In this document: positions 2,951 through 7,881 of the stretch, one piece after another
How the letters are laid out: each line of letters starts with the position of its first letter
Numbering within the stretch: the first letter of the stretch is position 1
Origin: a virus
Taxonomy: Duplodnaviria > Heunggongvirae > Uroviricota > Caudoviricetes
Strand: one strand, 5' to 3'
Length of the DNA: 7,881 bases
Virus record (IMG/VR): IMGVR_UViG_3300029498_000057
The notes under the pieces: model-generated
What the model was told of the DNA's origin: nothing
Seen by the model: the letters and a program-made list of their open reading frames with translations, nothing else
The model's database searches: none
Program-made: the position numbers and the translations under genes

Positions 2951-3418
2951 TTATTTCAGGCACTGAGTGCGGATATATTCCTGCGCCACTTCCAGCTGCT
3001 TCTGCATCAGCATCAACCGCTCTCTGAGAGTGAAATAATCCCGTTCAGCGGTGTCTGCCAGTCGGGGGCCGGTTGCATTATCCACGCCGGAGGTGGTGGG
3101 GGCTTCACGCACGGTACCGGGGCAGGTGGCGTTGATCCGCAGGCGCTTACGACCAGCGGCAACGTCAGCGCGCAGAGTTTCATTTTCAGCTCTCGCATCG
3201 GCTAATTCCCTCGAGTATCTGGCATCAAGTGCAGCAACATCACGCTGGCGCTGCTGCATATCAGTAATGGTTGCATTTGCCTGCTCCAGCTCACTGACTT
3301 TTTTATCGCGCTGCTCTTTGTAGGTTATGGCGTTATCACGGTAATGATTCAGCCCCAGACTAAGCGCACCACAGGCCACCAGCAGGGCAATGATGACCAC
3401 GCACAGTACGCGGTTCAT
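2951..3418 (-). CDS. Rz: Spanin inner-membrane subunit (i-spanin, Rz-like), 155 aa
   Basis: 155-aa ORF with an N-terminal transmembrane segment (VLCVVIIALLVACGALSL) followed by a charged, coiled-coil-like region. Clear similarity to lambda Rz (shared NHYRDNAITYK, ITDMQ.RQRDVAALDA, GVDNA..PRLADTAERDYFTLRERL). Contains an embedded +1-frame Rz1 gene and lies last in the lysis cassette. Confidence 0.93.
   Translation of the reverse strand: MNRVLCVVIIALLVACGALSLGLNHYRDNAITYKEQRDKKVSELEQANATITDMQQRQRDVAALDARYSRELADARAENETLRADVAAGRKRLRINATCPGTVREAPTTSGVDNATGPRLADTAERDYFTLRERLMLMQKQLEVAQEYIRTQCLK
3013..3198 (-). CDS. Rz1: Spanin outer-membrane lipoprotein subunit (o-spanin, Rz1-like), 61 aa, entirely embedded in Rz in another frame
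   Basis: 61-aa ORF MRELKMKLCALTLPLVVSACGSTPPAPVPCVKPPPPPAWIMQPAPDWQTPLNGIISLSESG. Has a lipoprotein signal with lipobox ending at Cys20 and a proline-rich mature part; closely matches lambda Rz1 (CVKPPPPPAWIMQPPPDWQTPLNGIIS). The true start may be the internal Met6. Confidence 0.9.
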   Translation of the reverse strand: MRELKMKLCALTLPLVVSACGSTPPAPVPCVKPPPPPAWIMQPAPDWQTPLNGIISLSESG

Positions 3419-3419
3419 T

Positions 3420-3518
3420 TCACCACCAGCGTATCTGACCGATGAAATAACCGGAGGCCATAATCACAAACACCAGCCAGATAAGAATGAACTTCCAGGT
3501 GGATAATTTTTCAGCCAT
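3420..3518 (-). CDS. Hypothetical small hydrophobic protein (32 aa from ATG 3518; 45 aa if the in-frame GTG at 3557 is used), translationally coupled to Rz
   Basis: Not in the ORF track (below its size cutoff). Minus-strand reading gives MAEKLSTWKFILIWLVFVIMASGYFIGQIRWW then TGA (3422..3420), one nucleotide before the Rz ATG (3418..3416). An in-frame GTG at 3557..3555 is preceded by AAGGAG at a 5-nt spacing; the ATG at 3518 is preceded by GGGAG. One predicted transmembrane helix. No homolog recognised. Confidence 0.4.
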   Translation of the reverse strand: MAEKLSTWKFILIWLVFVIMASGYFIGQIRWW

Positions 3519-3593
3519 CACTCGAATCTCCCGAATCAGTTTGCTAAAATCAAACACACTTTCTCCTTTGACTTTTCCAGAGTCAGGAAACAC

Positions 3594-3636
3594 AAAACCC
3601 CGCTTGCAGCCAACAAACGGGGTTTTTACTTTTATT
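3594..3636. terminator. Rho-independent-terminator-like hairpin with T-runs on both sides (potentially bidirectional) between endolysin and spanin genes
   Basis: Plus strand AAAACCCCGCTTG-CAGCCAA-CAAACGGGGTTTTTACTTTTATT. On the minus strand (the gene strand) the stem is CCCCGTTTG/CAAGCGGGG, 9 bp including one G-U pair, with a 7-nt loop, followed by TTTTGTGTTT. On the plus strand the same hairpin is followed by TTTTTACTTTTATT. Confidence 0.5.
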
Positions 3637-3716: not shown

Positions 3717-4250
3717 TTATCTGTCGATACCCCAGCACGCCAGCGCGCTCTCCTGGTCACGACGGGATACCTGACCGTAGCAGTTGTTTGAACGAATACG
3801 GCAGTCTCTGCCACCGTCCTTAATCCACCAGCGAATCGCCTCACACGCTCCCCTGCGATCACCTGCATTAATTCGTTTATAAAACGTCGACGGGAAACAC
3901 TTACCGGGACCAATGTTGTACGGACAGAATGACGCGATCCCCGCTTTCTGGGGTTCGCTCAATGGCACTTTGATGTTTTTCTCCACCCATGCCAGCGCCT
4001 TATCACGCTCAATGGCGTTAACCCGGTCGCATTTTTCCTTCGACAACTTCATGCCCGGAACGACAGGTTTGCCATCCACCAGGATGGCACCGCGGCAGAT
4101 GGTCCAGATACCCGCGCCATCACGGTATGCCGTGGTGTGGTTACCTTCCTTTTCATCCAGAAACTGGTCGAGAATGTCAGGCGCAGGCGCACCAGCGGCA
4201 ATCAGCGCCAGAACGGCAGCCGACAGGCCGTATTTGATTTTGGTGTTCAT
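3717..4250 (-). CDS. R: Endolysin, GH24 (T4-lysozyme-like) family with an N-terminal SAR/signal-anchor-like segment (R of 933W/Qin type), 177 aa
   Basis: 177-aa ORF MNTKIKYGLSAAVLALIAAGAPAP... followed by the lysozyme catalytic region EGNHTTAYRDGAGIWTICRGA (Glu-8aa-Asp-5aa-Thr pattern). The N-terminal Gly/Ala-rich weakly hydrophobic stretch is typical of SAR endolysins. Strong resemblance to the prophage endolysins I recall from Qin (RrrQ) and Stx2 phages. Lies between the holin and Rz. Confidence 0.93.
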   Translation of the reverse strand: MNTKIKYGLSAAVLALIAAGAPAPDILDQFLDEKEGNHTTAYRDGAGIWTICRGAILVDGKPVVPGMKLSKEKCDRVNAIERDKALAWVEKNIKVPLSEPQKAGIASFCPYNIGPGKCFPSTFYKRINAGDRRGACEAIRWWIKDGGRDCRIRSNNCYGQVSRRDQESALACWGIDR

Positions 4251-4313
4251 GGATATTTATCAGGATTTATCGGTTTCTGCCCACGGACAGGTTTATCTGT
4301 TCCGGTCAGTGAC

Positions 4314-4664
4314 TTAAGGTTGTGATTCCGGAGGAGTCTTCAGAGAACCAGTAATTCTTCCCGGTAGCTTTCCTTTGTAGGTTATCCATACATTCTGCGC
4401 CTCTAAAATTACGGGGCGCTTTTCCGGCGACTGCTCATCCCCTTCACATAACCCGGCAGCAACATCCAGGAAGACCTGTCTGATGCTCATTCTGGCTGCT
4501 GCCTCATAAAACTCCAGCGCGGCACCTTCAACACGGTCCAGCGAGATGTCCAGGTCAAAAATTTCACCGTCAAAGCGTTTTTTGTCCCGTAACGCTAAAG
4601 TTACCGTAACTTTATTCTCAAAATTGCGGATCCCTTTCACAATCAGTTCATAGTTTTGAGTCAT
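4314..4664 (-). CDS. ydfR: YdfR-like protein of unknown function (DUF1327-type, family name from memory), 116 aa, inserted between holin and endolysin
   Basis: 116-aa ORF MTQNYELIVKGIRNFENKVTVTLALRDKKRFDGEIFDLDISLDRVEGAALEFYEAAARMSIRQVFLDVA... Start is 4 nt after the holin stop and preceded by GGGGAGAG. The N-terminal ~75 aa resemble E. coli K-12 Qin prophage YdfR as I recall it, which sits in the same position. No transmembrane segment and no catalytic motif recognised. Confidence 0.85.
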   Translation of the reverse strand: MTQNYELIVKGIRNFENKVTVTLALRDKKRFDGEIFDLDISLDRVEGAALEFYEAAARMSIRQVFLDVAAGLCEGDEQSPEKRPVILEAQNVWITYKGKLPGRITGSLKTPPESQP

Positions 4665-4668
4665 TGAA

Positions 4669-4884
4669 TTACTCTCCCCGTGCCGCCTTACGACGGTCCT
4701 CTCTGATTTTGAAATACAGGTTAGTCAGATATGTCAGCAGCCCAAACAGCAGACTCCCCAGCACGCCTATTGCCGCCCACTGAGACGGGGAAACCCTGTC
4801 CAGCAACTGCAGGAACCAGTAGCCCGTTCCCACCGCTGACGTGGTGTATGACACACCTGTTGTGATTTTTTCCATCTGGTCCAT
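4669..4884 (-). CDS. S: Class II holin / pinholin of S21 (phage 21 / Stx-phage S) type, 71 aa, with dual-start motif
   Basis: [71 protein letters not shown]: two transmembrane segments and a charged C-terminus, near-identical to S21/933W S as recalled. Met1 and Met4 give the dual-start arrangement; GGGAGA lies ~8 nt upstream of Met1. The ORF track's 108-aa version (4669..4995) is an upstream over-extension that runs into the IS66 terminal repeat. Confidence 0.9.
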
Positions 4885-4903: not shown

Positions 4904-4929
4904 GTAACCGGCTCATTTAAACCGTCTGG
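4904..4929 (+). repeat. IS66-family left terminal inverted repeat (IRL), approximate extent
   Basis: GTAACCGGCTCATTTAAACCGTCTGG aligns in inverted orientation with the right end GTAAGCGACTCGTCAGAACCGTATTG (shared GTAA.CG.CTC...AACCGT.T). Boundary placed by the family's characteristic GTAA terminus; exact inner extent uncertain. Confidence 0.6.
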
Positions 4930-4956
4930 TCTGTTTCCTCCGGCTCTACAAAAATA

Positions 4957-5634
4957 ATGTCCATCATTTTTAATGGACACTATCGTATGAAACACCGGAC
5001 CTGGATCACTGAAGCTTTACGTCTTCACTTTGAAGAACATTTACCCCGGGTTGTGGCCGGGCGTCGCCTGGGTGTACCAAAATCAACAGTTTGTAGTATG
5101 TTCGTGCGCTTTCGGAGAGCTGGCCTTTCGTGGCCTTTGCCCGCAGGCATGTCGGAGCAGGAACTTGATGCCTGCCTTTACGGACAATTTTCCACGGTAC
5201 CAGTCGTACGTCCTGAAAGCACCGTTATATCCGAAGCCCCCGTGGTAAAAAAACGTCCCCGGCGGCCCAACTTCCCTTATGAGTTTAAAATCGCCTTAGT
5301 GGAGCAGTCACTGCAGCCCGGAGCCTGTGTGGCGCAGATCGCCCGGGAAAACGGAATCAACGATAACCTGCTCTTCAACTGGCGCCATCAATACCGGAAA
5401 GGTGGCCTGCTGCCTTCCGGAAAAAATATGCCGGCACTGCTTCCCGTGACGTTAACGCCGGAGCCGGATAATAAAATCCCGGCCCCCGCACAGGAACCAG
5501 AGCAGATAAATACACCGTCCGACAGTCTGTGTTGTGAGCTGGTTCTGCCGGCCGGAACTCTCAGGCTTAAAGGTAAACTGACGCCGGCGTTATTACAGAC
5601 ACTTATCCGCGAAATAAAAGGGAGCAGCCACTGA
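4957..5634 (+). CDS. tnpA: IS66-family accessory protein TnpA (Orf1) with an N-terminal helix-turn-helix-like extension, 225 aa
   Basis: The C-terminal half contains the IS66 Orf1 signature ([49 protein letters not shown]). The N-terminal ~100 aa carry an additional HTH-like segment ([21 protein letters not shown]). The start codon is uncertain: ATG 4957, or an in-frame ATG 30 nt downstream. Stop overlaps the tnpB start. Confidence 0.8.
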
Positions 5635-5981
5635 TGATATCTCTCCCTGCAGGTTCGCGTATCTGGCTGGTTGCAGGTATCACCGATATGCGAAATGGCT
5701 TTAACGGCCTGGCATCAAAAGTTCAGAACGTCCTGAAGGATGACCCGTTCTCCGGACACCTGTTCATCTTCCGCGGACGCCGGGGTGACCAGATAAAAGT
5801 GTTGTGGGCTGACAGTGACGGACTGTGCCTCTTCACCAAACGCCTGGAGCGGGGCCGCTTCGTCTGGCCAGTCACCCGTGACGGCAAGGTGCACCTTACT
5901 CCGGCTCAGTTATCCATGCTTCTTGAAGGTATCAACTGGAAGCACCCGAAACGAACGGAACGCGCTGGAATCCGCATATAA
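5634..5981 (+). CDS. tnpB: IS66-family Orf2 (TnpB accessory protein; not the IS200/IS605 TnpB nuclease), 115 aa
   Basis: [79 protein letters not shown]... is the highly conserved IS66 Orf2 sequence pattern. Its ATG overlaps the upstream stop (TGATG), a typical translational coupling in this family. Confidence 0.93.
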   Translation: MISLPAGSRIWLVAGITDMRNGFNGLASKVQNVLKDDPFSGHLFIFRGRRGDQIKVLWADSDGLCLFTKRLERGRFVWPVTRDGKVHLTPAQLSMLLEGINWKHPKRTERAGIRI

Positions 5982-6000
5982 CCCGTTGTAAAGTGAGGAT

Positions 6001-7572
6001 ATGGACACCTCACTTGCTCATGAGAACGCCCGCCTGCGGGCACTGTTGCAGACGCAACAGGACACCATCCGCCAGATGGCTGAATACAACCGCCTGCTCT
6101 CACAGCGGGTGGCGGCTTATGCTTCCGAAATCAACCGGCTGAAGGCGCTGGTTGCGAAACTGCAACGTATGCAGTTCGGTAAAAGCTCAGAAAAACTTCG
6201 TGCAAAAACCGAACGGCAGATACAGGAAGCACAGGAGCGAATCAGCGCACTTCAGGAAGAAATGGCGGAAACGCTGGGTGAGCAATATGACCCGGTACTG
6301 CCATCCGCCCTGCGCCAGTCTTCAGCCCGTAAACCGTTACCGGCCTCACTTCCCCGTGAAACCCGGGTTATCCGGCCGGAAGAGGAATGCTGTCCTGCCT
6401 GTGGTGGTGAACTCAGTTCTCTGGGATGTGATGTGTCAGAGCAACTGGAGCTTATCAGCAGCGCCTTTAAGGTTATCGAAACACAACGTCCGAAACAGGC
6501 CTGTTGCCGGTGCGACCATATCGTGCAGGCACCAGTACCTTCAAAACCCATTGCACGCAGTTATGCCGGAGCGGGGCTTCTGGCCCATGTTGTCACCGGG
6601 AAATATGCAGACCATCTGCCGTTATACCGCCAGTCAGAAATATACCGTCGTCAGGGAGTGGAGCTGAGCCGTGCCACACTGGGGCGCTGGACAGGTGCTG
6701 TTGCTGAACTGCTGGAGCCGCTGTATGACGTCCTGCGCCAGTATGTGCTGATGCCCGGTAAAGTCCATGCTGATGATATCCCCGTCCCGGTCCAGGAGCC
6801 GGGCAGCGGTAAAACCCGGACAGCCCGGCTGTGGGTCTACGTCCGTGATGACCGTAACGCCGGTTCACAGATGCCCCCGGCGGTCTGGTTCGCGTACAGT
6901 CCGGACCGGAAAGGTATCCATCCACAAAATCACCTGGCCGGTTACAGCGGTGTGCTTCAGGCCGATGCTTACGGTGGTTACCGGGCGTTATACGAATCCG
7001 GCAGAATAACGGAAGCCGCGTGTATGGCTCATGCCCGGAGAAAAATCCACGATGTGCATGCAAGAGCGCCCACCTACATCACCACGGAAGCCCTGCAGCG
7101 TATCGGTGAACTGTATGCCATCGAGGCAGAGGTCCGGGGCTGTTCAGCAGAACAGCGTCTGGCGGCAAGAAAAGCCAGAGCCGCGCCACTGATGCAGTCA
7201 CTGTATGACTGGATACAGCAACAGATGAAAACACTGTCGCGTCACTCAGATACGGCAAAAGCGTTCGCATACCTGCTGAAACAGTGGGATGCACTGAACG
7301 TGTACTGCAGTAATGGCTGGGTGGAAATCGACAACAACATCGCAGAGAACGCCTTACGGGGAGTGGCCGTAGGCCGGAAAAACTGGATGTTCGCGGGTTC
7401 CGACAGCGGTGGTGAACATGCGGCGGTGTTGTACTCGCTGATCGGCACATGCCGTCTGAACAATGTGGAGCCAGAAAAGTGGCTGCGTTACGTCATTGAA
7501 CATATCCAGGACTGGCCGGCAAACCGGGTACGCGATCTGTTGCCCTGGAAAGTTGATCTGAGCTCTCAGTAA
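6001..7572 (+). CDS. tnpC: IS66-family transposase TnpC (Orf3), 523 aa
   Basis: 523-aa ORF preceded by GTGAGGA. Has an N-terminal coiled-coil/leucine-zipper-like region, a Cys-rich zinc-finger-like motif (CPACGGEL...CRCDH) and a large catalytic core, typical of IS66 transposases. Ends ~30 bp before the right terminal repeat. Confidence 0.93.
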
Positions 7573-7576
7573 ATAT

Positions 7577-7602
7577 CAATACGGTTCTGACGAGTCGCTT
7601 AC
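7577..7602 (-). repeat. IS66-family right terminal inverted repeat (IRR), approximate extent
   Basis: Reverse complement of 7577..7602 is GTAAGCGACTCGTCAGAACCGTATTG, beginning with the canonical IS66-family terminal GTAAGCG and matching the left end at about 18 of 26 positions. Confidence 0.6.
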
Positions 7603-7881
7603 AAGAGGAACGAGAACCATTCATAGAGCCTAACACACTAAATGCCGCATTGAATCCCACGACTCGGCACGATCAACGTAAGATAATCGGAGCTTGCTGC
7701 ATGGTGACAAATGGAAAATGTGAAGGTAAAGAAAACGACATTACTAACTGACGTTTGTATCTAACACTGGGGACAGGTCACCTTGAATCGATGGAAGTCT
7801 CATTATGGATTTGCCCCTATATTTCCAGACATCTGTTATCACTTAACCCATTACAAGCCCGCTGCCGCAGATATTCCCGTG

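Follow-up and report, generated by a model that had tools for sequence, protein, structure and literature searches.

Classical morons of phages carry a promoter and a terminator of their own. Accessory regulators of lysis include the antiholin LydB of phage P1 and the releasin of phage Mu, and phage-encoded modulators of RNase E or the degradosome include Srd of T4 and gp0.7 of T7. The genes reportedly described as morons, by Juhala et al. in 2000 and Cumby et al. in 2012, are said to include bor and lom of lambda and gp15 of HK97.

Closest to the locus analysed here is ydfR of Escherichia coli K-12 (P76160), which is located in the Qin prophage between essQ/essD and rrrQ. Its family, DUF1327, is named in one paper only, in passing, and the sole informative work on YdfR is that of Göpel et al., RNA Biol 2026 (PMC13232886). 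In a bacterial two-hybrid screen, codons 1–72 of K-12 ydfR were isolated three times (PMC13232886). Both the YdfR fragment and full-length YdfR interacted with Rne 1–597, and no interaction of full-length YdfR with shorter or full-length Rne constructs was obtained (PMC13232886). Strep-YdfR co-purified Rne 1–598 and also RNA (PMC13232886). Overproduction of YdfR left growth unimpaired and changed few transcripts, and the gene was essentially silent under standard conditions (PMC13232886).

Layout of the window and state of the prophage

The window, by which the whole stretch of 7,881 nucleotides that was analysed is meant (virus record IMGVR_UViG_3300029498_000057), holds, by its gene content, the late region of a lambdoid prophage, read on the minus strand. 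In order of increasing coordinates and all on this strand, it encodes the terminase large subunit (64–1989), the terminase small subunit (1964–2509), Rz (2951–3418) with the embedded Rz1 (3013–3198), a small single-pass membrane ORF (3420–3593; phrog_6632, unknown function), the SAR-type lysozyme R of 177 aa (3717–4250; PF00959, E 5.5e-24), the ydfR-like gene of 116 aa (4314–4664; DUF1327/YdfR, PF07041, E 5.3e-42) and the S21-type (class II) holin S of 71 aa (4669–4884; PF04971 'Bacteriophage P21 holin S', E 9e-33). The holin carries the MDQM dual-start motif. R has the E-8-D-5-T motif and, at its N-terminus, a hydrophobic Gly/Ala-rich stretch of the kind known from SAR endolysins. The first-pass annotation had placed the gene 4 nt after the S stop, with an S21-type holin on one side and a SAR-type lysozyme on the other, and this was borne out. 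No RNA family was detected in an Rfam search of the whole window.

In the annotation of relatives, the membrane ORF at 3420–3593 has a length of 45 aa (3420–3557); it contains MAEKLSTWKFILIWLVFVIMASGYFIGQIRWW and ends 1 nt before the start of Rz. A strong 14-bp hairpin (3594–3626, minus strand; AAAACCCCG…CGGGGTTTT) is located between the endolysin stop and this ORF. It is terminator-like, but without a clean T run.

An IS66-family element (4904–7602, plus strand), composed of tnpA (4957–5634), tnpB (5634–5981) and tnpC (6001–7572), starts 20 nt ahead of the holin ATG and splits the cassette from its former upstream sequence; homology to locus L002 ends at 4904. The element ends in GTAACCGG... 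/ ...GCTTAC, its inverted repeats are imperfect (GTAACCGGCTC... / ...GAGTCGCTTAC) and its flanks (CGTTATCC versus AAGAGGAA) show no 8-bp target-site duplication, which suggests an IS-mediated rearrangement. Past the element (7603–7881), 204 nt correspond to unannotated E. coli chromosome and the final ~75 nt to IS2. As IS66, chromosomal and IS2 sequence occupy the upstream side, the Q/late-promoter region lies outside the window and may be lost. With the IS66 element only 20 nt from S, expression of this cassette from a late promoter is doubtful. An 'IS66-like element accessory protein TnpA' adjoins the holin in 35 E. coli genomes (95.8% identity across the junction for the best match), and none of 5426 complete E. 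coli genomes contained the exact configuration of the window. The window is probably an IS-ridden prophage remnant, possibly of Shigella origin.

The ydfR-like gene and its product

The product of 4314–4664 matched DUF1327 (PF07041) over residues 1–112 with 142.4 bits against a gathering cut-off of 25, which confirmed the membership in the YdfR family that had been proposed from the sequence. Matches to phrog_406 and phrog_2091 were obtained with E-values of 1e-67 to 1e-68. Five PHROGs (406, 2091, 1085, 2735 and 34145, all 'unknown function') have a common N-terminus and differ in their C-termini, and the closest cluster, P0001, annotated as 'YdfR family protein', is 99% identical to the window protein. 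When calculated against diverged homologues (Nei–Gojobori), dN/dS amounted to 0.22–0.32 in the N-terminal core and 0.10–0.49 in the tail. Since it stays below 0.5 in both halves, 4314–4664 is a genuine coding gene under purifying selection and not a chance ORF.

By hydropathy, the protein (pI 5.2) has neither a membrane segment nor a signal sequence. Its highest 19-residue Kyte–Doolittle mean is 1.03, as compared to 1.7 for the holin and R, in line with the earlier description of a soluble product devoid of transmembrane motifs. No match was obtained in an NCBIfam search, among the PADLOC defence-system profiles at E up to 0.1 or in a PDB sequence search at E up to 10. The protein displays neither sequence nor fold similarity to Dip-like phage RNase E modulators.

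The family is small: when 1.84 billion representative proteins were searched with a profile, only 90 clusters were found. With one genome per species scanned, the Escherichia type was confined to Escherichia/Shigella and a few mislabelled MAGs. A 521-nt probe spanning the gene matched 4389 of 5426 complete E. coli genomes. The window protein is an ordinary and intact member of the already-known DUF1327/YdfR family. The finding itself is already known, because gene, family and position are annotated in thousands of genomes, with K-12 ydfR as type example.

Conserved core and exchangeable tail

Two parts can be distinguished in the protein. The conserved core (residues 1–74; 4443–4664, minus strand) was delimited by the AlphaFold model (pLDDT 87.8), the family alignment and the identity to K-12 YdfR. 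The exchangeable tail (residues 75–116, GDEQSPEKRPVILEAQNVWITYKGKLPGRITGSLKTPPESQP, with the stop codon; 4314–4442, minus strand) was defined by pLDDT, the comparison with K-12 and synonymous divergence. By BLASTP, residues 1–74 are 80% identical and 95% similar to K-12 YdfR (103 aa), which aligns at 1–74 only. The impression of the first-pass annotation, that the C-terminus differs from that of K-12 YdfR and forms a variable tail on a conserved core, proved correct. It is the 74-aa N-terminal core alone that defines the family.

In the AlphaFold model the core consists of three strands (5–14, 18–27 and 33–43) and a helix (50–72). Structure prediction thus returned a strand-strand-strand-helix core, and fold comparison found no relative of the protein. 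Across the family (alignment A2, 26 sequences, down to 24% identity) Y5 is nearly invariant and Y53–E54 is invariant. The core of the window protein is acidic (pI 4.9), and a core pI of 4.3–5.5 was computed for 17 of 19 family members. Acidic cores are what would be expected of a protein binder and not of a general RNA binder. A direct RNA-binding protein, with the order of strands and helix resembling the C-terminal part of a dsRNA-binding domain or a hibernation-factor-like fold, is a most improbable reading.

The tail shows a pLDDT below 50 and is predicted to be disordered as a monomer; its 42 residues are unrelated to the 29-aa tail of K-12 YdfR. In comparison with L028 (O55:H7 allele) and L029 (Stx1-phage allele), the synonymous divergence was about 1.8 in the core and 0.22 in the tail. 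Such high values in the core next to low ones in the tail point to a recombination joint near codons 74–77. It was also considered whether the tail derives from a lost partner gene (see below), as an antisense or read-through remnant; this was rejected, as no DNA similarity to the partner region of L036 was found.

The core thus exists as two alleles that have diverged deeply, MTQNYELIVKGIRNFENK… and MKKKYELVVKGINNYPDK… (window versus L028:1602–1946 and L029), with 55% amino acid identity at this dS of about 1.8. The tails behind them are almost the same (dS 0.22), a sign of recent recombination at the AAGLCEG linker.

In the ORFs found at the holin–endolysin junction, four modules were recognized: the core (A, residues 1–74), the tail of the window protein (B, PEKRPIILEAQNVWITYKGKLPGRITGSLKTPP), a coiled-coil segment (C) and a further C-terminal domain (D). 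The combination A+B is represented by the window and by the 114- and 116-aa forms, A+B+C by the 176- and 183-aa forms, A+C by L025 and A+C+D by P0128. L026 consists of C+D with the core absent, P0154 of C+B, and the K-12 protein of A with a different tail. The tail variants yield proteins of 103, 114, 116, 176, 183 and 287 aa, plus the core-less variant. The ORF at the S–R junction therefore reads as a mosaic of exchangeable modules.

Optional presence at the holin–endolysin junction

At the S–ydfR junction (4665–4679, minus strand), the S stop codon TAA (4669–4671) and the ydfR ATG (4662–4664) are separated by a spacer of 4 nt (TTCA, 4665–4668). The ribosome-binding site noticed in the first-pass annotation corresponds to the Shine-Dalgarno-like sequence GGGGAGAG (4672–4679), which is located 8–15 nt upstream of the ATG. 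The gene had been called co-translated with the lysis genes; co-transcription with S stands, and translational coupling to S is only possible. In a crude consensus scan, no promoter or terminator signal above shuffled background was detected near the gene.

The S-to-R segment matched 455 phage records, 101 of which encode the DUF1327 core. In many of the 455, including 933W-type Stx2a phages, the match is made of two aligned pieces spanning 754 nt that correspond to S plus R alone. In the annotation of Stx2a_F422 (Traversvirus tv933W), 4 nt separate the holin from the endolysin, and the proteins of a 933W-type phage (L027) are 97% (S) and 93% (R) identical to those of the window. Among 21 Escherichia/Shigella loci, the S stop and the R start were 4, 312, 374, 399, 418 (window) or 671–1098 nt apart. 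As with morons, the flanking genes are conserved whether or not the gene lies between them, but a promoter and a terminator of its own, a further mark of morons, were not found. Obligatory co-occurrence with holin and endolysin was not observed either, considering the 933W-type phages and the distant family members outside S–R. The S–R junction appears to be a hypervariable accessory locus. Based on these comparative data (optional presence and occurrence at other sites), the gene is seen as an accessory insert and not as a lysis gene, and that it is not required for lysis is held with good confidence.

The insert also changes the sequence context of R. The GGGGAGAGTAAnnnnATG junction found here ahead of ydfR directly precedes R in the insert-free 933W-type phages, where R is served by the GGGGAGAG site that lies within the final part of S. 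In the window, 63 nt (4251–4313, minus strand) separate the ydfR stop from the R start, and the last 23–27 nt of them form the conserved leader CCGATAAATCCTGATAAATATCC (4251–4277, minus strand), without a Shine-Dalgarno sequence and with no GGAG. This leader stands directly before the R ATG in all insert-bearing junctions examined, except for the K-12 type, in which the stop of ydfR and the start of rrrQ share bases (ATGA). The insert could thus act mainly in cis by capturing the strong ribosome-binding site embedded in S and leaving R with a leader from which its translation would be lowered or uncoupled, in which case the protein itself would matter little. Such an explanation is at odds with the purifying selection on the protein sequence and with the conservation of the core, down to 25% identity, in genera where no endolysin adjoins it; it is considered very unlikely.

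DUF1327 genes at other prophage positions

Outside Escherichia (Pantoea, Cronobacter, Yersinia-type and other enterobacterial prophages, hosts being given as named by the source), the core occurs as a stand-alone gene of 72–99 aa. In L012 (Pantoea) it is located between the antiterminator Q and a PF05106 holin, and in the viral contigs L034 and L035 it is preceded by a hicAB-like pair and followed by a different holin with a GH24 lysozyme. It is found after the spanin and before the terminase in L017 (Cronobacter) and in L022–L024, between the tail genes M and L in L014 and L020 (Yersinia), and between the tail genes I and J in L021. None of the distant DUF1327 members examined lies between holin and endolysin. 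The fixed position suggested earlier was therefore retained for Escherichia/Shigella, where the neighbourhood survey places the gene between S and R, but is no feature of the family as a whole, whose other members are located upstream of the holin, after the spanin or in the tail module.

These data bear on the lysis-related role that the first-pass annotation had drawn from the position of the gene, namely that of a cytoplasmic modulator tuning pinholin triggering or SAR-endolysin release. The gene lies 4 nt after S, its stop overlaps the rrrQ start in K-12, and the arrangement occurs in most E. coli genomes, as judged from the 4389 probe matches mentioned above. In addition, a Keio ydfR mutant was picked up in a screen for envelope integrity (PMC3879167, supplement). 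This phenotype is likely a polar effect on rrrQ, because of the same stop–start overlap. On the other side, nearly identical S and R proteins adjoin each other and function without the gene in 933W-type phages, and the ORF at the S–R junction may wholly lack the DUF1327 core (L026). The core was never found between S and R outside Escherichia, it belongs to the tail module in two types of context, and the holins and endolysins that it accompanies are of unrelated types (PF05106 with GH19; other holins with GH24 lysozyme). Finally, the protein has no membrane segment, and overproduction of K-12 YdfR causes no growth defect (PMC13232886). The role derived from the position is left unsupported; a lysis modulator of this kind is improbable, and so is any modulatory effect of the gene on lysis. 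As a membrane protein within the lysis cassette, the product of the small ORF at 3420–3593 is arguably a better candidate than YdfR for an uncharacterised lysis-related function.

A recurrent convergent partner gene

In six of six look-ups, the distant DUF1327 genes were followed by an ORF of 74–101 aa on the opposite strand, the two stop codons being at most 24 nt apart or overlapping. Overall, the partner ORFs encode helical proteins of 74–104 aa and overlap with the DUF1327 stop by up to 53 nt. They were located at L003:2657–2929 (plus strand), L025:2146–2406, L026:2162–2476, L036:2501–2797, L012:4240–4542, L014:4247–4486, L017:1469–1765, L020:4278–4529, L021:4282–4506 and L022:942–1232. 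A reverse ORF is present at 6 of the 21 Escherichia/Shigella junctions and missing from the other 15, which include K-12 and the window. Compared with L003, the gap of the window at 4251–4313 misses about 300 nt, including a reverse ORF of 90 aa.

A homologue of the Cronobacter partner was found at an E. coli S–R junction, convergent with a core-only DUF1327 gene of 72 aa, and further homologues in Serratia and Escherichia tail modules are convergent with an unrelated ORF of 93–95 aa. A convergent small ORF was present in all four look-ups that started from this partner family. The family (60–84% identity among its members) accompanies the core at three different prophage positions. Two simplifications were rejected. 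The partners do not constitute one family, as phmmer all-against-all linked the Pantoea–Cronobacter pair only; they fall into at least six PHROGs of unknown function without mutual similarity. The 93–95-aa forward ORFs are not cryptic DUF1327 members either (HMM E >0.09, hhalign probability 0.9%).

A hicA/hicB-like toxin–antitoxin pair (L035:1688–2329, L034:160–342) was observed directly upstream of the pair of DUF1327 and partner genes, ahead of the holin.

The gene of the window could be the orphaned half of a mobile cassette, in which a small gene on the late strand and a convergent small gene for a helical protein overlap or have their ends no more than ~25 nt apart. Expression would alternate between them, with the reverse gene active in the lysogen and the forward gene during lytic growth, and the two would act jointly, for instance in exclusion or defence with a late antagonist; the partner would have been lost from the copy in the window. 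The look-ups from either side (6/6 and 4/4), the six Escherichia/Shigella junctions with a reverse ORF, the ~300 nt containing one by which window and L003 differ, and the movement of one partner family with the core among three prophage positions all speak for such a cassette. However, the partners are spread over at least six unrelated PHROGs, among which no homology was detectable, and the partner family that moves with the core also pairs with an unrelated forward ORF. Because of these two observations, the convergent pattern may only reflect stereotyped accumulation of morons. Moreover, the partnerless E. coli copies (15/21) are still under purifying selection, and no PADLOC match was obtained. 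An orphaned cassette half is therefore rather unlikely. Less likely still is the larger proposal of an undescribed two-gene convergent cassette that hops among late-operon sites of enterobacterial prophages, the window holding an orphan half with a new tail. Its sites would be located before, inside and after the lysis cassette and between tail genes, and the 3' overlap may make the two products mutually exclusive. Its role could be prophage exclusion or defence with a late-expressed antagonist, possibly through RNase E.

RNase E as candidate target

The preferred explanation is that ydfR is an optional, moron-like accessory gene at the hypervariable S–R junction of Escherichia/Shigella lambdoid prophages and no part of the lysis machinery. 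It lacks a promoter and would share the transcript of S, which starts at the late promoter. For translation it would rely on the Shine-Dalgarno sequence located within the final codons of S, the same site that serves R directly where the insert is absent. The product is a small acidic cytoplasmic protein whose 74-aa core is most likely a protein-interaction module, the 42-aa tail being an exchangeable module.

The best-supported target would be the catalytic N-terminal half of host RNase E. The K-12 region bound by RNase E (1–72) is covered by the core of the window protein with 80% identity and 95% similarity, and by homology to this interaction region the window protein would bind RNase E as well. 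At a late stage after induction, YdfR would then tune the decay or processing of RNA by RNase E, an effect that is deduced from the binding. That RNase E is the physiological target is a tentative proposal, and a doubtful one. The explanation as a whole, i.e. a moron-like accessory insert with an RNase E-directed core, is the one preferred here, at somewhat less than even chances.

Comparison with known systems and significance

Roughly four in five complete E. coli genomes carry genes of the YdfR family, and Stx1 and Stx2c phages are among the carriers. New in this analysis are the optionality of the gene at the S–R junction, the recombination of its modules and the repeated occurrence of a convergent partner. 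As an optional and recombining insert, YdfR would be removed from models of pinholin/SAR-endolysin lysis, and attention moves to the targeting of a host factor (RNase E) and to the convergent partner gene. The hypervariable S–R locus should also be of help in annotating Stx and other lambdoid prophages. The window itself offers nothing unusual apart from an ordinary member of the family, in what is probably a prophage remnant disrupted by IS elements.

Like the antiholin LydB of P1 and the releasin of Mu, it is an extra small gene inside a holin/SAR-endolysin cassette; unlike them, it shows no sequence similarity to these regulators and no membrane segment, and it is dispensable for the same S/R alleles. 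With Dip of phiKZ (PMC4980113) it has in common that it encodes a small phage protein, the K-12 homologue of which was reported to bind RNase E. Phage morons are resembled in that the gene is optional between conserved late genes, occupies varying intergenic sites in related phages and is found beside the lysis cassette or between tail genes. It departs from them in being set in the translational context of S, with no promoter or terminator detected. Structurally, the window protein is no different from the DUF1327/PHROG members. It differs from K-12 YdfR in the length of the tail (42 versus 29 aa) and in the 63-nt gap that takes the place of the overlap with rrrQ, and shares with it the Pfam family and the location 4 nt after an S21-type holin and ahead of a SAR-type lysozyme.
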